Notes: a model not told the origin generated them from the letters alone. Counted from the first letter of the stretch, positions 26,857 through 35,443 are shown. The stretch: 35,977 nucleotides of DNA from an uncultured Enterobacteriaceae bacterium (GCA_964640355.1 CAZXGW010000001.1:12138-48114); one strand, 5' to 3'. A program made the numbers and translations.

Positions 26857-27624
26857 ATGCGGTCTATAAAGAAAATCATCGAACGGATTTTTTCTCGTAC
26901 CTGGAATCAAGACGCGTCTTCGCGACCGCCTGGCCAGCCAGCCGGTCATGACGCAGAGGCCGCTTTAAGCGATAGGTTAAGACAGCGCGAACGAGAACTC
27001 TATGGTGCGGAAACTGTCGAGAGGCAGCGGCTGTATGAGCGGTGGGTGGTTAAGGAATCCTGGCGCCTGCGGGCGGAGGCCCTGCCATTGCTGGCCGGTT
27101 TGGATCCCGATCGCCTTGCCGGAACGGCTGAAGGTCTTCTGGGCGACGCTGAACTCGACGCGCTCTGGGATCATGCACGCCGGTGTGTGGCGCAGGGACT
27201 GTTGCCGGTCATCAATGGCGAAGATGACCCTGAGGCCTGGCGCATACGGCCTTTCGACGCCTTTCGCTGGGCGGCGGTGAGCCGCGTCCATGTCCCCGAA
27301 GGCCTGGCGGCGCTGCTTGATTTCATCGATCGGACCGTGAAGAAGTCCGGCGCGGGAAGCGCGCCCGCCGGTCCCGGCCAACCGTTCGCCCCGGGCGAAG
27401 ATGACAGGGTGCGGGTCCTGGGCGCGGCGCTCGCCCTGCTGGCCGCCGATCCCGGCCGCTGTGTTGACGGGAACGGGCGTGCCTGCGCCGGCAGGATGGC
27501 GCGGCTGATTTCCGAGAAAGGGGCGTTCTGGTTCGGGGATCAGGTGGTGAAACTGCAGGAGCCCGACATCAGGGCGCTGCTGGAGCGCTGGCTGGCCACG
27601 GTCCCGCCGGGATCATCTCAATGA
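26857..27624 (+). CDS. Hypothetical protein (255 aa, Ala/Arg/Leu-rich, predicted soluble)
   Basis: ATG-initiated ORF 18 nt after tilS. I recognise no motif. The composition looks coding rather than shadow, since there is no long competing ORF on the other strand over most of it. Its 3' end overlaps the convergent FHA gene by 7 nt. Confidence 0.55.
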   Translation: MRSIKKIIERIFSRTWNQDASSRPPGQPAGHDAEAALSDRLRQRERELYGAETVERQRLYERWVVKESWRLRAEALPLLAGLDPDRLAGTAEGLLGDAELDALWDHARRCVAQGLLPVINGEDDPEAWRIRPFDAFRWAAVSRVHVPEGLAALLDFIDRTVKKSGAGSAPAGPGQPFAPGEDDRVRVLGAALALLAADPGRCVDGNGRACAGRMARLISEKGAFWFGDQVVKLQEPDIRALLERWLATVPPGSSQ

Positions 27625-29135
27625 GTGACCGGGACCTTGGTGTTCTGCATTACCGTTGATTCTTCCACGGAATACTCCACCGGCAACAGGGTAAAGCGCA
27701 GGGAGATGTCGCCAATCTCGATGATATCCCCTTCGTGCAGCCTGTGACGGTGAATCTTGTTGTTGTTGACGTAGACGCCGTTCAGCGAGTCGAGGTCGAT
27801 GATGGTAAAGACATCGCCCTTGTCCCGGTGAATCTCGGCGTGGCGCCTGGATACCGAGTTGTCGACCAGCGTCAGTTCATTGTCCCGGCTGCGCCCGATT
27901 CGCCAGGACGTGCGCGTAATGGGATAGCGCTTTTTGGTTTCGTCCTGCAGGATGAGGTAGGCATAGGGTTTAAAGTCGCTGAATGCCGCGGGCGCCTCCG
28001 GTTTTTTCTCCTGGCGTCGCAGCAGGAGGAAAAATGAGGCAATGGTGATCAGCAGTACGATCACCAGGGCAATCGGTATCCCTACCCAGATCCAGGTGTC
28101 CACGGGTTTTGCCGGTGCCGGCGTGGTGATGACCCGGATCGGAGGGGGCTCCCGCACCGGCGTGGCTACCGGCGGGGCCGTCGGCTGTATCACGGGCGGT
28201 TCGGCGACCGGCGCGGCCGCCTCGGGGTTGGTGACCGTGAAATTGACCCTGTCCTCCCCGCTTTCCAGGCTGAAATTCAGATTTACCGCGATCTTTTCAT
28301 TCGCCTCCGGCACGATGACCAGCGAGATATCCACGCTCAGCCTCCCGCCGCTTTCGATACGATCGTAGGGAGCGTCCAGGATACCCGCGGGCAGGCTGTA
28401 GTCGCTGCCCGTATCCACGAACAGGCCGCCGGTTTCTTCACTCAGACGGCGCAGGGTCTGCAGGGCCACGGATTGGGCTATCGATCGCTGGTAGCCGAAG
28501 CTCGTGATGATCACGCCTGCCTTTCTCGCCGCGGCCACCACGTCCTGGTGGAAATACGCCTTGTCTTCCGCCAGGCCGTCGGAAAACAGGAAAATGGCCT
28601 TGCGGTCAGCCTGTGTTTTGTCCAGCAGTTCGACCGCGGTCATGACGCTCCGGTAAAGTTCAGTCGTCATTCCGATGGCACGCAATGTCCTGGTCGCCTC
28701 GAGCACCTGGGTCGGCGTGGATCCGAGGGGGGCCTCAACCCGCAGGACCTTGTCGAAGCTGGCGAGACCGATGCGATGGTGGGCCGCGATCTTTCCGAAC
28801 AGCGCTTCGATGTGGGCCTGGTTTTTTTCGATGACGTTCTGCCTGCCCGGATCGCTGGTGTCGACGACAAACAGGATGGCCGTGACGGCATCCGGCCAGG
28901 GATAGGTGACGTTTTCCCTCACCGGCAGGTACGTGTCACCGGCATAGGCGGATACGCCCAGGATCGATTCAGGCGAGCCTGCCCGGTAGGTGCAGTCCAG
29001 CGTCCTGTGATCAGGTGACTGGATGCACGCGACATCGATTTTCTTCCCGGATTCGGGTACGGCCGCCGCGGCGAAGGACATCACGGCCAGGAAGGCCGCG
29101 GACATGTACAGGGCGGCGTGTTTATGTTTCATCAT
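27618..29135 (-). CDS. Single-pass membrane protein: signal peptide, periplasmic vWA-like domain, Pro/Ala-rich linker, TM helix, cytoplasmic FHA domain
   Basis: - N-terminal signal peptide: MMKHKHAALYMSAAFLAVMSFAAAAV.
- vWA-like core: AILFVVDTSDPG...IFLFSDGLAED...GGLFVD.
- Linker: APVAEPPVIQPTAPPVATPVREPPPIRVITTPAPAKP.
- TM helix: WIWVGIPIALVIVLLITIASFFLLL, followed by RRQEKK.
- C-terminal FHA signature: WRIGRSRDNELTLVDNSVSRRHAEI...LNGVYVNN...GDIIEIG. Confidence 0.85.
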   Translation of the reverse strand: MMKHKHAALYMSAAFLAVMSFAAAAVPESGKKIDVACIQSPDHRTLDCTYRAGSPESILGVSAYAGDTYLPVRENVTYPWPDAVTAILFVVDTSDPGRQNVIEKNQAHIEALFGKIAAHHRIGLASFDKVLRVEAPLGSTPTQVLEATRTLRAIGMTTELYRSVMTAVELLDKTQADRKAIFLFSDGLAEDKAYFHQDVVAAARKAGVIITSFGYQRSIAQSVALQTLRRLSEETGGLFVDTGSDYSLPAGILDAPYDRIESGGRLSVDISLVIVPEANEKIAVNLNFSLESGEDRVNFTVTNPEAAAPVAEPPVIQPTAPPVATPVREPPPIRVITTPAPAKPVDTWIWVGIPIALVIVLLITIASFFLLLRRQEKKPEAPAAFSDFKPYAYLILQDETKKRYPITRTSWRIGRSRDNELTLVDNSVSRRHAEIHRDKGDVFTIIDLDSLNGVYVNNNKIHRHRLHEGDIIEIGDISLRFTLLPVEYSVEESTVMQNTKVPVTH

Positions 29136-29147
29136 GATCGCGATCAG

Positions 29148-29669
29148 TTACTTGTCCGGAAACAGGGGGTCGGGTAAATCATAGAATTGTATATTAACAG
29201 ATTCCTGGCCGGATCGGGGCGCGTCCCTCAGTTCATCGATCAGGTTCCGGCGGGTCTCGTTGAACTCGCCCAGTTGCGGGATGCCTTTATCGAGTTTCGA
29301 TTTCACGTTGATGACCAGTTCGTGCAGCGCGCTGGAATAAGGCAGCCGGTAGGCGCGCGGCGGGGCCGGCGACGACAGGTCTTCGATGCGCGCCAGCCAG
29401 AGGTAAACCGCGCCTTCATCGCCGGTGATCTTGTCAGGTTGTTCCACGTGGGCCGCGATCAGCCGGAAGCGTTCCGGCGGGTTGTCGGCTGCGGGCCACC
29501 CGAGCAGCGGCGGAAATGACAGGTAGGTGACGATGTAAAAAGCCGACGTGATGACGACCGTGCCGGTCTTTACTTGCCACGACCAGTTCGAGTAGAGATT
29601 GACGCTGAGGAGCAGCAGGGCGATGAGAACGTACGCGGCCACCAGGCCGGCGATGCTTAGGGTTACCAT
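29148..29669 (-). CDS. Hypothetical 2-TM membrane protein (173 aa)
   Basis: Two N-terminal hydrophobic helices (LSIAGLVAAYVLIALLLLSV and VVITSAFYIVTYLSFPPLL) followed by a soluble domain of about 110 aa. AAGGA-type RBS before ATG 29669. 12 nt upstream of the vWA-FHA gene. Confidence 0.65.
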   Translation of the reverse strand: MVTLSIAGLVAAYVLIALLLLSVNLYSNWSWQVKTGTVVITSAFYIVTYLSFPPLLGWPAADNPPERFRLIAAHVEQPDKITGDEGAVYLWLARIEDLSSPAPPRAYRLPYSSALHELVINVKSKLDKGIPQLGEFNETRRNLIDELRDAPRSGQESVNIQFYDLPDPLFPDK

Positions 29670-29770
29670 GTCTCGTCCTTTGCGGAAACGGTCTCAAGAA
29701 CGCTGCGGTCGCTGATCTGGAGACCGGTTCAAAATGATTTTATCCCCGGGTGATATTCTAAGGCGCGCGT

Positions 29771-30364
29771 TTACCCGAGAGAAACCAGCGGCTTCGGCAG
29801 GAAATTGATGCCGGTGATTTTTCCGTCCCTGCCTATCCTGAACCGGAACGCCGTTTTTTCCTCGCCCTTGCTTTCAAGCGTCAACGTTCCGTAATAGACG
29901 ACTTCGAGCGCGGGGTTGACCTTCACCATCCTGACGTTCACGTCCACGGGCTTGCCGGTCTCGGTGGCATAGTAATGGAGGTTGACGACATATTCACCCG
30001 CCACCACGCCGCGGATGGTCACGACTTCCTGGTTCAGGGGGTTCTGGACCAGTTCGCCGTTGATCGATATCGTATCGTTTACGAGGCCCCTGTCGTCCCG
30101 GTCGAGATGCAGCAGGCCCGCCTCGGGATTCCGGAACCAGATCACCCGCCCGTCGGGATCTTCCACCCACGTGTCGATATCGTCGGGATTGTTGTCTTCC
30201 CATGTGACTGTGATGATGTATTCCGCCTTGGGATCGATGATGCCCGTTTTCGCCTCGGGGTTCATGAACATGATGGCGACCAGGAACAGGAAAGTGAATC
30301 CCAGCAGCGCATTGAACAGCAGATCCGTAAAGGGATCGGACTGCAGGCGTTTTCTCGCGGGCAT
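29771..30364 (-). CDS. ExbD/TolR-like membrane anchor fused to an unrecognised beta-rich periplasmic domain (197 aa)
   Basis: The N-terminus RLQSDPFTDLLFNALLGFTFLFLVAIMFM aligns by eye with the ExbD TPFIDVMLVLLIIFMV segment, including the membrane-embedded Asp. The remainder (IITVTWEDNNPDDIDTWVEDPDGRVIWFRNPEAGLLHLDRDDRG...) does not resemble the ExbD/TolR/MotB periplasmic domains. The start lies 4 nt after the stop of the MotA/ExbB-like gene. Confidence 0.7.
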   Translation of the reverse strand: MPARKRLQSDPFTDLLFNALLGFTFLFLVAIMFMNPEAKTGIIDPKAEYIITVTWEDNNPDDIDTWVEDPDGRVIWFRNPEAGLLHLDRDDRGLVNDTISINGELVQNPLNQEVVTIRGVVAGEYVVNLHYYATETGKPVDVNVRMVKVNPALEVVYYGTLTLESKGEEKTAFRFRIGRDGKITGINFLPKPLVSLG

Positions 30365-30368
30365 CGGG

Positions 30369-31175
30369 CTACGTGATTCTCGGCAGGATGTAAACCTGGG
30401 TCAGGTGCCGGGTCGTCTCGATCAGTTCATCGACGCCGCGGTCGAGCATCTGATATTGCGCGGCCACAAGCATGCTGCAGGTCAGGCCGGCCAGGGTCGT
30501 ATACAGTGCCGTGCCCATGCCCGCGCTCATCTGCTTCAGCACTTTCTGCATGGTTGTGACGTCGAAGTCGGTGATGTTGGCGACCGAGGCCAGCATCATG
30601 ATGAAACCAATGATCGTGCCGAGCAGCCCCATCTTGATCATCAGATCGGCCATGAACCAGCCGATGTCGTGCGGGCCCTTCAGCCTGGATTCGTAAACCC
30701 CGATGAGCTCGTTGCCGGCGGCCGCCGGATCGCCGCCGTTCCTGTTGCCGCCCTTGTGCAGGAGGTCGTGCAGGTAGCTGGCCACCAGGCAGTCCGGCAG
30801 CGAGGCACCGCCGTTGACATGGACGCGGTCATCCTTCCCGTTCAGCTCGAACCCGGAACTTTCCCGAATGAGTTTCTCCACCCGCCTGGAATCATTGATT
30901 TGGGTGGATACGAGGCAAATCCGCCGCGCGCAGTGCGCGGTCATGACGAGGAAGAGCAGCGTTATGGCAAAGGAAATCTTGCTTTTGTCGCCGGCAAAGA
31001 GCGCAAGAATCACGCCCTCCTGCCAGGCCACAAACAGGGAAAAGACGACAATGCCCGTAAATATCGTCCACACGAGCAGCAAATGGTGCGGTCCCCGGGT
31101 CATCGTTCCCGCCACGGAAAACCGGCCGTCACCGCCCGCGGCATGGGTCCGTCCGGCTGCGGCGCGCATGATCAA
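30369..31175 (-). CDS. MotA/TolQ/ExbB family proton-channel protein
   Basis: C-terminal hallmark helices MIKMGLLGTIIGFIMML and GMGTALYTTLAGLTCSMLVAAQY, plus N-terminal TM helices. The longest ORF starts at TTG 31175. ATG 31169 or ATG 31103 (MTRGPHHLLLVW...) are alternatives, and I consider 31103 at least as likely. Confidence 0.85.
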   Translation of the reverse strand: MIMRAAAGRTHAAGGDGRFSVAGTMTRGPHHLLLVWTIFTGIVVFSLFVAWQEGVILALFAGDKSKISFAITLLFLVMTAHCARRICLVSTQINDSRRVEKLIRESSGFELNGKDDRVHVNGGASLPDCLVASYLHDLLHKGGNRNGGDPAAAGNELIGVYESRLKGPHDIGWFMADLMIKMGLLGTIIGFIMMLASVANITDFDVTTMQKVLKQMSAGMGTALYTTLAGLTCSMLVAAQYQMLDRGVDELIETTRHLTQVYILPRIT

Positions 31176-31260: not shown

Positions 31261-31842
31261 TTATTCCCGTATCACGACCTTCGTGCCGATGGTGACGTAT
31301 TTTTTCAGGTCGTCAATCTGCTCGTTGGTCAGGGCGATGCAGCCTTCGGTCCAGTTGATCTCGTCATGGATTCTCAATTTACTTTCAGTGGTATTGCCGA
31401 GGCCATGTATGCCGATATAACCGCCGAGCCGCGTGTCCTGGGGCGGTTTTTCCCTGTATTTGACGGCATGGGCGATTCTCTTGAACTCATTGGCGGAAAT
31501 GATCCGGTTCTTGTACCCGTACCAGGCATCGAGCAGGTTCGGGTAATCGAGGTGCATGAAATAGTGAAACCGGCTGTCGTTCTTGAAATCGACGATCTTG
31601 TACACGCCGACGGGAGTTTTCTTGTCCCCGATCTCCCGCTTCGTTCCCTTGCCCCCCTTGCCGTAGGCGATCCGGTACTGCTTTACCGTTCGTTCACCTT
31701 TAACCACGTTCAGCCGCTGTTCAGACTTGAATATCAGGAGAGCGTAATCGCTGTCCATCGCCGGGCAGACGCCGCAAATCAACATCCCCAGCGCCCCCAG
31801 GCACACTCCCCGCATTGCCAACCCGATTCCAGATCGTGTCAT
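31261..31842 (-). CDS. L,D-transpeptidase (YkuD) family protein, secreted
   Basis: Signal peptide, then the YkuD catalytic signature GGYIGIHGLGN...INWTEGCIALTNEQIDDL (His ... Thr-x-Gly-Cys). Confidence 0.88.
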   Translation of the reverse strand: MTRSGIGLAMRGVCLGALGMLICGVCPAMDSDYALLIFKSEQRLNVVKGERTVKQYRIAYGKGGKGTKREIGDKKTPVGVYKIVDFKNDSRFHYFMHLDYPNLLDAWYGYKNRIISANEFKRIAHAVKYREKPPQDTRLGGYIGIHGLGNTTESKLRIHDEINWTEGCIALTNEQIDDLKKYVTIGTKVVIRE

Positions 31843-31979: not shown

Positions 31980-32007
31980 ACTATAACGCTTCCCGCGCCG
32001 CTGACAA
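31980..32007 (-). promoter_or_regulatory. Candidate sigma70 promoter upstream of the L,D-transpeptidase gene (TTGTCA-N16-TATAGT on minus strand)
   Basis: Minus strand reads TTGTCAgcggcgcgggaagcgtTATAGT. It lies about 130 nt upstream of ATG 31842. Pattern match only. Confidence 0.3.
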
Positions 32008-32134: not shown

Positions 32135-32165
32135 CACAAAAAACAAGGGGCCTTGCGGCCCCTTG
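32135..32165 (-). terminator. Rho-independent terminator downstream of pqqA
   Basis: The minus strand reads CAAGGGGCC-gcaa-GGCCCCTTG followed by TTTTTTG, that is a perfect 9-bp GC-rich stem, a 4-nt loop and a T-tract. It starts about 27 nt after the pqqA stop. Confidence 0.85.
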
Positions 32166-32191
32166 CGGTTTTGACTTTGGCAGTCAGTACA

Positions 32192-32266
32192 TTACTTGTT
32201 GTTAATGTACATCGTGACTTCGAAACCAAAACGGATATCACTGTAATCCGGAGTTTCCCACTTCAT
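32192..32266 (-). CDS. pqqA: PqqA-like pyrroloquinoline quinone precursor peptide (24 aa)
   Basis: My own codon-by-codon translation gives MKWETPDYSDIRFGFEVTMYINNK. This closely parallels known PqqA peptides (e.g. [20 protein letters not shown].NR type), including the cross-linked Glu-x-x-x-Tyr (EVTMY). GAGGTG RBS lies 6 nt upstream of the ATG. The 61-aa track ORF is an upstream over-extension. Confidence 0.85.
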   Translation of the reverse strand: MKWETPDYSDIRFGFEVTMYINNK

Positions 32267-32348
32267 GTTATTCACCTCAAAAGTTTCAAGTGACAAGTTT
32301 TTCAAGACCCGGTGACACCGGGGTACCGGTGTGGTACGGCAGTATATA

Positions 32349-32365
32349 CAGCATGATTCATGCCA
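32349..32365 (-). promoter_or_regulatory. Sigma54 (-24/-12) promoter upstream of pqqA
   Basis: The minus strand reads TGGCATGAATCATGCTG against the consensus TGGCACG-N4-TTGCW. The GG and GC dinucleotides are exactly 12 nt apart. It lies about 85 nt upstream of the pqqA ATG. An AT-rich, IHF-like TTTCAATACATTG sits at 32407-32419, between the promoter and the divergent kinase gene. Confidence 0.6.
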
Positions 32366-32552
32366 TGTGAGAGGCAAGTCGGGATATTGTTTAAAATATA
32401 TCTATATTTCAATACATTGTATGAGTTTCCTGGATTATGGCAGACGGCTGATCCGCGTCCACCTGGCGGGGACTTTGGCGCGTGATGGCTGATGCCGCCC
32501 GGAAGCTGGTCGTTATGAACCAATCTCGGTGTGAATTCGTTATACTCTGCCC

Positions 32553-34025
32553 ATGATCATCAAGCGCCCCGGCTCACTCCGGAAACTTCTTTTCATTCAT
32601 GAAATTGCCTTCCTGCTGCTGGTGGCCGTCACGGGGCTGCTCGGCGGCCTGTCCGCCTACTTCTGGCAGCAGTATTCCACCGAATCGGTGCGGATCCATA
32701 ACCTCGTATACGGTATCGAGCAGATTCGGGGAGAGCTGTTCCGCCAGATCCAGGTTGCCATCCGCGCCAGGCTGCTGGAAGAACCCCGGGCACTTGAACT
32801 CTACGGGGAATATTCGCGCCGGATTGACCGGCAGTTCAATACGCTGAGGCAGAACGCCGCGCACCCCGACGAAGATCTGGCGATTCAGGATCTGCAGGTG
32901 TCCTACCGGGAAATCCAGAAAGACACGAACAAGATCTTTACCGATCCGTACATGATCAGCCGGCAGGTGCGCCTGAAGATCCTCGATCCGAGGTTCGCGG
33001 AAGGGATGGTGGGCAAGTTTGAAGATGAGTACCAGGCCATGAAATCCATGTTGTCGGTGAAGCACGAGGCGCTTGACGCGGTGCTGGAACGCTGGACCCG
33101 GCTCGCGCCGGTGCTGATTCCCATACCGCTGGTGCTGGCGGTCATGATCGTGCTTTATGCGCGCAGCATCATGAACCGTGAGTTCGTGCAGCCCATGTCG
33201 CACGTGATTGAAGGCGCCCAGCACATCAGCCGCGGCCGGTTGAACCTTACCATCCCGGCGACGGGCGTGGACGAGGTGGCCGAGCTGGCCAGGACCATAA
33301 ACGGCATGGCGAGGGATCTCGAGGCGAGCCGGAATGCCCTGGTCGAAAGCGAAAAGCAGGCAGCCCTCGGCGCCCTGGTGCCCGTCGTGGCGCACAACAT
33401 CCGCAACCCCCTGGCCAGCATCCGTGCTACCGCCCAGGTGCTGGATGATGTGGAAAGCGAGGAGGAACTGAAAGAGAGCAGGCAGGCAATCCTGGACACG
33501 ATTGACCGGCTGGGCAGGTGGGTGAACGCGCTGGTGTCCTACCTGCACCCGCTGAGACCGAGTTACCGGCTGGTCTACGCGAGCCAGATGATTGACGCCG
33601 CGCTCTCCCTGCTCAAGCCGAGGCTCGATGAAAAAAACATCACGGTCGAAAAGGTGGGCTGGAAAAGCGACGCGCGCCTCAACGCCGACCCGGACCTGAT
33701 GGAACAGTCCATCTATGCGCTGCTGGCCAATGCCGTGGACGCCTCACCGGAAAATTCCTCGCTGGTCGTGGAAATGGCCAGGGAGGATGCAAACCTGGAA
33801 ATCCGGATCCAGGACAGCGGGCCCGGATTGCCCTTTGACCCGAAACCGGACAAGCTGACCCCGGGCCTCAGCACGAAGCGTTTCGGTACCGGGCTCGGCA
33901 TCCCCATCGCCTTCAAGATCTGCCAGCAGCACGGCTGGAAACTCAGGTTTACGTCGGAAAAGGGGAATGGAACCAAAGCGATAATTACCGCGCCGATCAG
34001 GGTGATCGAGGAAATCAGCGAATGA
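32553..34025 (+). CDS. Membrane sensor histidine kinase (2 TM, periplasmic sensor region, HAMP, HisKA, HATPase_c)
   Basis: TM1 LLFIHEIAFLLLVAVTGLLGGLSAYFW and TM2 LAPVLIPIPLVLAVMIVLYA. HAMP-like segment (...VDEVAELARTINGMARDLE). H-box VVAHNIRNPLASIRA. N/G boxes (LLANAVDAS, IQDSGPGL, GTGLGIPIA). Confidence 0.9.
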   Translation: MIIKRPGSLRKLLFIHEIAFLLLVAVTGLLGGLSAYFWQQYSTESVRIHNLVYGIEQIRGELFRQIQVAIRARLLEEPRALELYGEYSRRIDRQFNTLRQNAAHPDEDLAIQDLQVSYREIQKDTNKIFTDPYMISRQVRLKILDPRFAEGMVGKFEDEYQAMKSMLSVKHEALDAVLERWTRLAPVLIPIPLVLAVMIVLYARSIMNREFVQPMSHVIEGAQHISRGRLNLTIPATGVDEVAELARTINGMARDLEASRNALVESEKQAALGALVPVVAHNIRNPLASIRATAQVLDDVESEEELKESRQAILDTIDRLGRWVNALVSYLHPLRPSYRLVYASQMIDAALSLLKPRLDEKNITVEKVGWKSDARLNADPDLMEQSIYALLANAVDASPENSSLVVEMAREDANLEIRIQDSGPGLPFDPKPDKLTPGLSTKRFGTGLGIPIAFKICQQHGWKLRFTSEKGNGTKAIITAPIRVIEEISE

Positions 34026-35443
34026 AACACGATTCTGACGCGTCCCTGGAACCGGTGAAACTGCCGGCAACGGAGAGGCAGGTGCTGATCGTGGAGGATG
34101 AAAGCGTTTTTGCGCGGGCGGTACAGAAACACCTGGAGCGGTCGGGTTATCTAAGCCAGATCGCGGGCGATCTGAAATCGGCGGACAGGAAATTCCGGGA
34201 ATTGTCCCCCGACCTGGTGCTGCTGGACATGCGGTTGCCTGACGGCTCGGGCCTGGATTTCCTGTCGGACATCAGGAACCGGCACAACTCGAACGCGGCG
34301 GTGCTCGTGATGTCGGCTTACGGGGAGCTGGAGGATGCCGTGGCCGCGATGAAACTGGGCGCCTCGGATTACCTGAAAAAACCCGTGGACCTCGACGAGC
34401 TGCTGATTAACGTCGAGAAGGTGCTCGATAAAAGCGAACTGACGAAGAAACTGACGTATTCCACCAAGCGGGAACAGCATGCCGCGGAAGGCGTCGTGTT
34501 CCTCGGCGAATGCCGGGCGATTGCCGCCGTGCGCCGCCAGGTGGAGCAGATCGCCCGCCTCACCCAGGCCACGGACTCGATCCCCCCGACGGTGCTGATC
34601 CTCGGCGAAACCGGTACGGGCAAGGACGTCCTCGCCAGGCTGCTGCACGCCGGCAGCCGCCGCCGGGATCGGCCTTTCGTCCACGTGGATTGCGCCTCGC
34701 TGCCCAAGGACCTGATCGAGGCGGAGCTGTTCGGCCATGAAAAAGGCGCCTTCACCAATGCCCACATCGCACGCACCGGGCTGATCGAGGCGGCTGAAGA
34801 CGGCGTGCTGTTTCTCGACGAGATTGCCGAACTGCCGCCGGGCCTGCAGTCCAAGCTGCTGGCCGTACTTGAACGCCGAACGCTGCGGCGGGTTGGCACG
34901 ACCCGGGAGCGGCCGGTGGCCGCGTGGATCATTGCGGCCACGAACCGGGACGTCGGTGAATTGATTGAGCAGGGCGAGTTCCGATCCGATCTGTATTACC
35001 GGCTCAACGTGCTGAACATTACTCTCCCGCCGCTCAGGGAACGGGAAGGTGACATCATGATCCTGGCGAATTATTTTGCGGAGCAGACGGCGCGCCGTTA
35101 CGGCCTGGATAAACCCGTCTTCCGCAAGGATGCGGAGGAAGCCATGCTGAAAAACCCCTGGCCGGGCAACGTGCGCGAGATGAAACACCTGATTGAACGG
35201 GCCGTGTTGCTGACCGGCGGCGGCGAACTTGGCGCCGAAGCCATGTCCCTCTCTCCCGGGAGTGCCTCCAACGCCGGCGAACCGGTTCGCGACCTTGAGG
35301 ATTTGACGCTGGATTCGGCGGAAGTGTTGCTCATCAAACAGGCGCTGGAGAGAACCGGGTGGAATGTCTCCAGGGCAGCACGTATATTAGGCATCACCCG
35401 CATGGCCTTGCGTTATCGCATGAAAAAATATCACCTGAAGTAG
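34022..35443 (+). CDS. NtrC-family sigma54-dependent response regulator (REC, AAA+ sigma54-interaction domain, Fis-type HTH)
   Basis: REC domain with LVLLDMRLPDGSG and KLGASDYLKKP. Walker A GETGTGKD. Sigma54-contact loop EKGAFTNA (a variant of GAFTGA). Also LFLDEI and RSDLYYRL. C-terminal HTH NVSRAARILGITRMALRYRMKKY. ATGA overlap with the kinase gene. Confidence 0.93.
   Translation: MKHDSDASLEPVKLPATERQVLIVEDESVFARAVQKHLERSGYLSQIAGDLKSADRKFRELSPDLVLLDMRLPDGSGLDFLSDIRNRHNSNAAVLVMSAYGELEDAVAAMKLGASDYLKKPVDLDELLINVEKVLDKSELTKKLTYSTKREQHAAEGVVFLGECRAIAAVRRQVEQIARLTQATDSIPPTVLILGETGTGKDVLARLLHAGSRRRDRPFVHVDCASLPKDLIEAELFGHEKGAFTNAHIARTGLIEAAEDGVLFLDEIAELPPGLQSKLLAVLERRTLRRVGTTRERPVAAWIIAATNRDVGELIEQGEFRSDLYYRLNVLNITLPPLREREGDIMILANYFAEQTARRYGLDKPVFRKDAEEAMLKNPWPGNVREMKHLIERAVLLTGGGELGAEAMSLSPGSASNAGEPVRDLEDLTLDSAEVLLIKQALERTGWNVSRAARILGITRMALRYRMKKYHLK

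Follow-up and report, generated by a model that had tools for sequence, protein, structure and literature searches.

A conserved gene triad from an uncultured Enterobacteriaceae bacterium and from phages as a candidate family of minimal ion-driven membrane motors

To our knowledge, only a handful of families of ion-driven motors of the 5:2 type have been described (MotAB/PomAB, ExbBD, TolQR, GldLM/PorLM, AglRQS, and ZorAB), and each of them has opened a research field of its own. Here, we analyse a locus that may add another family to this list. It lies in a 35,977-nucleotide (nt) stretch of DNA from an uncultured Enterobacteriaceae bacterium (GCA_964640355.1, CAZXGW010000001.1:12138-48114), which is referred to below, at its full length, as the window, and it comprises four minus-strand genes, 1 to 4, encoding proteins that we call A, B, C, and D. 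The original prediction, made from the nucleotide sequence alone, had placed these genes at positions and intergenic distances (4, 101, and 12 nt between genes 1 and 2, 2 and 3, and 3 and 4, respectively) that are confirmed by the listing of open reading frames (ORFs), and the motifs on which it relied (GLLGTIIGF, GTALYTTLAGL, and DPFTD) are found in the translations. The conserved unit, however, is the triad A-B-C and not the set of four genes. By its sequence, A assigns the triad to the MotA/TolQ/ExbB superfamily, and the triad is thus predicted to be a new family of an already known type of machine; on balance, the products of genes 1-3 probably form a minimal ion-driven membrane motor belonging to a family not yet described. 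This reading, in which a third subunit is added to a 5:2-type motor, is drawn from the fixed and translationally coupled order A-B-C (inherited as a unit, with genes that are 4 nt apart or overlap), from pore threonines in A, and from an aspartate in the transmembrane (TM) helix of B. As predicted, the system appears to be undescribed: no named match was obtained in Pfam, NCBIfam, PADLOC, or PHROGs, and literature searches on MotA/TolQ/ExbB proteins in connection with vWA or FHA domains, transpeptidases, or phages yielded general reviews and a paper on vWA force transducers (see below) but no description of the triad, although this does not disprove that one exists.

Of the characterised proteins, TolQ and ExbB are closest to A, and the likeness resides in the channel. 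Residues 175-254 of A (numbered here and below from a TTG start at 31175), which span the two channel-lining helices, match PF01618 MotA_ExbB in Pfam (E 1.3e-9; 38.4 bits, cut-off 22.9). The A family profile aligns with the two channel helices of E. coli TolQ, which are its last two (hhalign E 3.5e-6, probability 88%), and with the last two helices of E. coli ExbB (E 8e-5), i.e., with TM2-TM3 of these proteins. In the alignment with TolQ, T187 and T227 of A fall on the pore threonines of the motifs GLFGT and ALIAT (TolQ T145 and T178), and at least 90% of 109 distinct homologues, phage copies included, retain both residues as well as G183, G186, G190, G230, and Q240. Thus, the Pfam match and the retained channel threonines support the earlier identification of gene 1 as a MotA/ExbB/TolQ-type channel protein, and sequence comparison places A within the superfamily. 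Outside the channel, A differs from TolQ and ExbB in having an extra N-terminal TM helix and in its cytoplasmic side: their helical cytoplasmic domain is lacking in phage copies (148-187 aa, with almost no cytoplasmic domain at all), whereas chromosomal copies carry an unrelated insert of approx. 70 residues between TM2 and TM3. The four-TM topology resembles that of MotA and PomA, which, along with solved TolQ and a ZorA, are the top matches of the A profile among PDB sequences; however, the alignment with E. coli MotA was not significant (hhalign E 0.22), and A has no torque-generating cytoplasmic loop. Single-sequence phmmer searches with A and B found no match among PDB sequences, and in NCBIfam and PADLOC, A gave just weak ZorA-type matches over the channel helices. 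Because homologues begin at MTRGPHHLLLVW (homologue alignment), the true start of A is most likely the ATG at 31103 rather than the TTG.

The second gene had been regarded as encoding an ExbD/TolR-type anchor with a periplasmic domain of a different kind. The architecture of the anchor stands: B has a basic N-terminal tail, a single TM helix, and an aspartate in this helix (Asp14) that is present in 41 of 42 diverse representatives, each 33-53% identical to the window protein; moreover, genes A and B are adjacent and tightly coupled, as in TolQ-TolR and ExbB-ExbD. Homology to ExbD/TolR, by contrast, is statistically undetectable. Asp14 lies in register with ExbD D25 and MotB D32, but only in alignments with hhalign E values of 0.01-0.02 and probabilities of 2-4%, and the alignment of the B family with E. 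coli TolR is spurious. PF02472 ExbD remained below threshold, appearing in 2 of the 42 relatives (best E 0.005), MotB_plug was sub-threshold in some members, and nothing exceeded the threshold for B in Pfam (PF02472, OmpA, and MotB_plug included), NCBIfam, PADLOC, or PHROGs. The periplasmic domain differs, as proposed, from those of ExbD/TolR and MotB. The AlphaFold2 (AF2) model of B (predicted local distance difference test, pLDDT, 90.7) consists of a helix (residues 11-33), a 14-residue linker, and strands (residues 49-187) that form an all-beta sandwich, without the alpha/beta domain of ExbD/TolR and without the plug or OmpA-like domain of MotB/PomB. Foldseek retrieved generic beta-sandwiches from the PDB (best E 0.02, TM-score approx. 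0.3-0.4), with no ExbD or TolR among the matches, and only uncharacterised viral proteins from BFVD; resemblances to PPC, DUF2135, and subtilisin beta-jelly-roll domains are all sub-threshold. Within the sandwich, W55, D62, D64, D90, D91, E113, and N128 are invariant in all 42 representatives. The 4476 relatives of B at E<=1e-3 (in a database clustered at 90%), which form 1868 clusters at 50% identity, indicate that the genes are real and not chance ORFs.

The third gene encodes, in agreement with the earlier description, a two-TM protein of no known family, with no match above threshold in Pfam, NCBIfam, PADLOC, or PHROGs. In an AF2 model of medium confidence (pLDDT 75.5), the two TM helices are followed by a small mixed domain, for which Foldseek found nothing better than E 0.3 in the PDB. 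C ends in a proline-rich tail with the motif [FY]xxLPxPxxP[DE]K, shared by chromosomal (Gammaproteobacteria) and viral copies, and C is 30% identical to a copy on a phage contig (E 7e-21). The lysine ends the chain in 71 of 84 chromosomal copies; elsewhere it is sometimes trailed by one to four residues, and in one variant (L128) the tail ends in arginine. Charge counts (+2 for the loop, 0 for the N-terminal tail, and approx. 0 after TM2) suggest that the small domain and the lysine-ending tail probably face the periplasm.

The triad behaves as a fixed unit across species. A genome scan with B, with one genome taken per species, recovered 80 loci, all from uncultured Gammaproteobacteria and with relatives of at least 74% identity, and A-B-C occur in this order in all 80. 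Identity across these species is approx. 80% for B, 60% for C, 53% for A, and 45% for D. More distant chromosomal copies were sampled through a few look-ups, and phage and other distant contexts comprise a modest number of loci. The triad was found in a Desulfobacterales chromosome and, without D, in an unannotated stretch of the Azospirillum brasilense Sp7 chromid (plasmid p1, NZ_CP012915.1; L203, 6303-8147). Azospirillum records contain two matching places each. Relatives of B with 30-45% identity reside on phage contigs with ribonucleotide reductase, homing endonuclease, or terminase genes. B is present in 29 cultured Rhizobium/Sinorhizobium phage records, including 16-3 (p040) and RHph_I1_9 (gp147), and on 26 IMG/VR viral contigs of up to 174 kb, of which 24 carry the full triad; of the remaining two loci, one starts at B, with A off the contig, and one is without a detected C. 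C follows B in 24 of the 26 viral loci. In phages 16-3 and RHph_I1_9, the triad is assigned to p038-p042 and gp146-148, respectively. In nearly all phage loci, B is flanked by a short A gene on its upstream side and by a C homologue downstream, with frames that overlap or abut. Neither a YkuD gene nor D was seen in the phage triad neighbourhoods inspected, and the phage counterparts of B and C have no match in PHROGs or PADLOC. The family therefore spans bacterial chromosomes and phage genomes and is large (1868 clusters counting B alone), and for two of its three subunits, Pfam, NCBIfam, PHROGs, and PADLOC hold no model. The A subunits of phages are the smallest known to us, and such small versions would be attractive for studying the core mechanism by which ion flow is coupled to rotation. 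Amenable hosts are available, namely Methylohalomonas lacus, A. brasilense Sp7, and Rhizobium phage 16-3 together with related phages.

No gene is more constantly linked to the triad than a YkuD gene, which had been taken as optional; it stands upstream, in the same orientation as the triad, in 77 of the 80 genome loci and recurs in 41 of the 46 metagenome loci that were retrieved by a reverse scan with D and have room upstream. PF03734 covers the whole domain of its product (Pfam), the translation contains HG and TEGC, the motif of the catalytic histidine and cysteine, and NCBIfam gives a partial match to LdtF/DpaA/YafK; hence, the product is predicted to be an L,D-transpeptidase-fold enzyme. 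The best promoter-like site, judged by consensus match only (10 of 12 positions), lies upstream of the YkuD gene, and there is no terminator-like site between this candidate and the end of gene 4. Since the only good promoter-like site precedes YkuD and the cluster is free of internal terminator-like sites, the YkuD gene and genes 1-4 probably form a single transcription unit. Therefore, the proposed operon retains its co-directional, tightly spaced genes, although it probably has five members rather than four. In relatives, a DUF302 lipoprotein gene is often located between YkuD and A (e.g., L020, 4725-5222); it is absent here.

By analogy with solved relatives, we infer a 5:2 stoichiometry, ion flow, and rotation. 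A would be the channel-forming wheel, a pentamer, and B the axle, a dimer whose single TM helix bears the ion-binding aspartate and whose 14-residue linker would hold a calcium-site-like beta-sandwich immediately above the periplasmic side of A, and C would be a third, obligatory membrane subunit. Protons (or Na+) flowing past Asp14 of B and the threonines of A would make A and B rotate against one another. The work would take place near the inner membrane and the cell wall rather than in the cytoplasm, as suggested by phage A subunits with almost no cytoplasmic domain and by the strong constraint on the B sandwich. As the probably co-transcribed enzyme has an L,D-transpeptidase fold, peptidoglycan is a plausible candidate for what is held, and the triad would hold on to it or act on it; the steadiness of this linkage suggests that membrane energy may be coupled to the cell wall in a new manner. 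From sequence and gene order, we likewise infer the topology of C, the link to peptidoglycan, and any coupling between D and the motor.

Gene 4 encodes, as had been proposed, a vWA-TM-FHA protein, with both domains matched in Pfam: VWA_2 PF13519 (E 4e-11) and VWA PF00092 (E 1e-10), both over the cut-off, at residues 87-239, and FHA PF00498 (E 7e-21) at residues 411-475. The vWA domain does not have the canonical DxSxS motif of the metal ion-dependent adhesion site (MIDAS); instead, DTSDP, in which proline replaces the second serine, is invariant (52 of 52), and the threonine (TTELY) and aspartate (SDG) positions are conserved. Two invariant cysteines, C37 and C48, precede the domain and fit a periplasmic location. 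The proline-rich stalk is approx. 45 residues long, and the TM helix is free of charged residues and lies in a moderately conserved region in which W348 is nearly invariant. A candidate role of D as the aspartate-bearing axle, as in one published family of vWA proteins, was rejected since this helix contains no acidic residue. In the FHA domain, 12 diverse homologues all share R412, G414, R415, S429, R430, H432, and N452, so that D carries the phosphothreonine-binding signature (Arg, Ser, His, and Asn) of a predicted reader. This is the sole part of D that matches PDB sequences (phmmer), the nearest solved relatives being mycobacterial FhaA/TB39.8, GarA, and OdhI, and the matches in NCBIfam are likewise limited to FHA (e.g., GltG, E 2.4e-10, and TagH, 44.8 bits). 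The extreme C-terminus past the FHA domain (27618-27660) reads EESTVMQxTKxPxTH in most homologues. In the proposed machine, D would be an optional and separable adaptor, with a periplasmic vWA domain on a proline-rich stalk and a phosphothreonine-binding FHA domain in the cytoplasm; such a partner suggests a route from the envelope to signalling by Ser/Thr phosphorylation.

Whether D belongs with the motor is less certain. It is possible, although we regard it as doubtful, that the triad and D are unrelated units sharing a conserved site, D being a component of a Ser/Thr-kinase pathway and its co-transcription mechanistically meaningless. Where D is present in this lineage, it always stands directly after C on the same strand (12 nt away in the window), and among the 46 metagenome loci retrieved via D, 37 have the full triad upstream; furthermore, the window contains no Ser/Thr kinase gene. 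Nevertheless, among the 68 related genome loci with room, D follows C in 41 and is missing from 27, in which the operon stops after C, and the phage and Azospirillum triads do without it. The original treatment of the four genes as one system is thus not upheld as stated: genes 1-3 are syntenic in all 80 genomes and recur in phages, whereas gene 4 also occurs apart from them, beside a Ser/Thr kinase. The exceptions in the metagenome scan comprise two loci with YkuD-DUF302-C-D, two with YkuD-D, and five with none of these genes, and in four of these five (L180, L182, L195, and L201), D lies directly behind a Pkinase+cNMP_binding kinase, at the same tilS site in L195. These kinase-D loci look like a separate, unnamed signalling module, and the association with kinases in other lineages fits a role in FHA-based signalling. 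An ABC ATPase and a UPF0014 membrane protein are sometimes found between kinase and D at loci without the triad. The predicted readout or control of the motor through FHA is not supported as stated and is possible on gene order only. All of this concerns D and does not conflict with the motor reading of A-B-C.

Several points weigh against that motor reading itself. The similarity of B to ExbD, TolR, and MotB lacks statistical significance (for ExbD, the hhalign probability is 2%), and an aspartate in a TM helix encoded beside a MotA-like gene is suggestive of a B-type subunit rather than proof of one. In a small subfamily (P0122 and P0176), valine occupies the position of this aspartate (FDPF[ST]VMLF), and P0176 (411 aa) reads as an A-like part, with the GLLGT and YTT helices, fused to a B-like part, which, if real, does not suit a 5:2 assembly; these proteins are either an aspartate-less subfamily of fused subunits or an artefact of gene calling or frameshift. 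The topology of C is taken from charge counts and nothing else. C and D can persist without a motor, as in the YkuD-DUF302-C-D loci L128 (3179-6425) and L132, which have neither A nor B. Finally, D can be found without the triad, and the triad without D, at the same tilS-adjacent site (kinase-D in L195), and a common location may account for their adjacency in the window as much as a common function.

A more ambitious version of the motor reading, which we consider decidedly unlikely, would make the triad a self-sufficient, new class of miniature ion-driven rotary motor, with an A subunit of just about 150 residues in phages. Its static reference would be the lysine tail of C, covalently attached to the wall by an L,D-transpeptidase, in place of a peptidoglycan-binding domain. 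Braun's lipoprotein is fixed to the cell wall by the same kind of lysine attachment. The enzyme is co-encoded here, and phages would use that of the host; bacteria would employ the motor for envelope upkeep, and large phages would use it to gain control of host envelope mechanics or energetics during infection. Speaking against this version, the lysine is not terminal in the copies with one to four further residues and is replaced by arginine in one degenerate variant.

The wide occurrence in phages raises an unlikely alternative to a bacterial motor, namely that the triad is at root a phage module for manipulating the host envelope or membrane potential (e.g., for superinfection exclusion or control of the proton-motive force) and that the chromosomal copy is domesticated; the module may then be a gated ion leak instead of a force-generating motor. 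The relatives of B with 30-45% identity in 29 cultured phage records and 26 IMG/VR contigs, on contigs with terminase, ribonucleotide reductase, and homing endonuclease genes, would agree with this, as would phage A proteins stripped to about 150-180 aa, without a cytoplasmic domain. However, the chromosomal copy occupies one housekeeping site (tilS, accA, and dnaE) in 80 species and has a G+C content like that of its surroundings, which indicates that it is old and vertically inherited, and B is under very strong constraint (approx. 80% identity). The phage neighbourhoods, which contain gyrase, SbcCD, and a late sigma factor, hold nothing that points to lysis or exclusion cassettes.

It is highly unlikely that the triad, instead of being a motor family of its own, is a diverged Ton/Tol paralogue, the TonB/TolA-like partner of which lies elsewhere or has been replaced by gene 3 or 4. 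The kinship of A with TolQ and ExbB, the aspartate of B in register with ExbD D25 (at a weak hhalign E), and the proline-rich stalk of D, which recalls TonB, are in its favour, and vWA proteins have been proposed as TonB-like force transducers of TolQ-like motors (PMC12204202, Mol Biol Evol 2025). Nonetheless, A has four TM helices and not the cytoplasmic domain of TolQ/ExbB, B has not the periplasmic fold of ExbD/TolR and stays below threshold on PF02472, there is a third conserved two-TM subunit, and the triad occurs in phage genomes. No TonB, TolA, TolB, or Pal is encoded within the window, and the TM helices of C contain no histidine of the SHLS type. D shares with the published transducers an inner-membrane tether and a vWA domain on a disordered or proline-rich linker that would be worked by a TolQ-like motor, but its orientation is opposite to theirs and to that of TonB. 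According to the paper, those families have an N-terminal TM helix (with an SHLS motif or as an aspartate-bearing pore helix), a linker, a C-terminal vWA domain, and no FHA domain, whereas D has a signal peptide, an N-terminal vWA domain, an uncharged TM helix after it, nearer the C-terminal side, and a cytoplasmic FHA domain, and the aspartate is found here on the separate subunit B.

There is only a very slight chance that the triad is an anti-phage defence system related to Zorya, and membership was rejected: beyond the shared MotA/ExbB superfamily, a ZorA structure among the best PDB matches, and weak ZorA matches (NCBIfam E 2.6e-4; PADLOC E 1.8e-6) that span just 60-80 residues of the channel helices (A residues 174-258), no long-tailed ZorA above the cut-off was found (20 bits for the best NCBIfam model, ZorA_4, against 500, and 11-17 bits for other Zor models against 100-700), A lacks a long cytoplasmic tail and B an OmpA-like peptidoglycan-binding domain as in ZorB, ZorC, ZorD, and ZorE are absent, B, C, and D have no PADLOC match, and the locus is a housekeeping region and not a defence island, with phages themselves carrying the triad.

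Two further systems are functional analogies only. In the Agl-Glt machinery of Myxococcus (AglRQS, GltG, and CglB), a motor of the TolQ/MotA type is likewise combined with a single-pass protein whose FHA domain is cytoplasmic and with a vWA domain located beyond the inner membrane. The FHA domain of D matches the GltG model, though over the FHA region only (39.6 bits against a cut-off of 650). However, D joins vWA and FHA in one chain with the domain order reversed, the other Glt proteins are absent, and B and C are unrelated to AglQ/S. In the type VI secretion system (T6SS), PpkA has the order kinase-TM-vWA, so that a vWA domain in the periplasm is linked through the inner membrane with signalling by Ser/Thr phosphorylation. 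D resembles PpkA/Fha1 in this respect, and relatives of D lie behind Hanks-type kinases; in contrast to PpkA, D bears an FHA reader and not a kinase, there are no T6SS genes, and the TagH model is matched through FHA only, below its cut-off of 120 bits.

Table 1. Positions of the five genes, their predicted domains, and the candidate promoter, counted from the first letter of the window.
Feature	Position	Strand	Description
Promoter candidate, sigma-70-like	31980..32007	-	TTGTCA, 16-nt spacer, TATAGT; upstream of YkuD gene
YkuD gene	31261-31842	-	PF03734 E 1e-21; N-terminal signal sequence; probably first gene of the operon
Gene 1 (A), ORF	30369-31175	-	268 aa from TTG
Subunit A from likely ATG	30369..31103	-	Predicted 4-TM channel protein of the MotA/TolQ/ExbB family, 244 aa
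Channel helices TM3-TM4 of A	30456..30659	-	GLLGT (T187), LYTT (T227)
Gene 2 (subunit B), ORF	29771-30364	-	197 aa; short N-tail in the cytoplasm, single TM helix (Asp14), linker of 14 residues, predicted periplasmic beta-sandwich
Asp14 codon of B	30323..30325	-	Candidate ion-binding residue in TM helix
Beta-sandwich domain of B	29804..30220	-	Invariant acidic residues
Gene 3 (subunit C), ORF	29148-29669	-	173 aa; two TM helices, then small domain of approx. 115 residues
C-terminal tail of C	29151..29186	-	FYDLPDPLFPDK; ends in Lys
Gene 4 (protein D), ORF	27618-29135	-	505 aa; signal peptide, vWA, Pro-rich stalk, TM, FHA; separable accessory
vWA domain of D	28419..28877	-	DTSDP replaces DxSxS metal-site motif
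Pro-rich stalk and single TM helix of D	28032..28229	-	Stalk approx. residues 303-345, TM helix approx. 346-368; read from translation
FHA domain of D	27711..27905	-	GR, SxxH, and NG signature residues

Outside this cluster, the window is a classic housekeeping block that extends from dus/glnD to dnaE-accA-tilS, together with genes for a histidine kinase and a sigma-54 regulator; the other genes are dus, glnD, map, rpsB, tsf, pyrH, frr, uppS, cdsA, dxr, rseP, bamA, skp, lpxD, fabZ, lpxA, lpxB, rnhB, dnaE, accA, and tilS. The gene listing bears out the earlier statement that no TonB, Tol-Pal, OmpA/MotB, flagellar, gliding, or Zor partners are encoded in the window. An Rfam scan of the whole window found no RNA family, and a regulatory hairpin considered for the 101-nt gap between genes 2 and 3 was dropped, as its predicted RNA fold is no stabler than that of shuffled sequences (z -0.23).

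Just upstream of the candidate promoter of the YkuD gene, a strong terminator-like hairpin on the minus strand (32143-32166; 10 pairs, 7 of them G-C, followed by a T-run) closes the preceding minus-strand unit, in which the only ORF is one of 61 aa (32192-32377). Further upstream and divergent, a HAMP histidine kinase and a sigma-54-dependent response regulator are encoded on the plus strand (32553-35443), and they might control the operon; the same pair is found at a Methylohalomonas-type locus (L204, 1-1931), although not in all relatives. At the other end of the cluster, a plus-strand ORF of 255 aa (26857-27624) with no Pfam match runs towards gene 4 and shares 7 nt with the 3' end of that gene; in 45 of 84 related loci, a homologue of this ORF is found at the same place, between tilS and the cluster.

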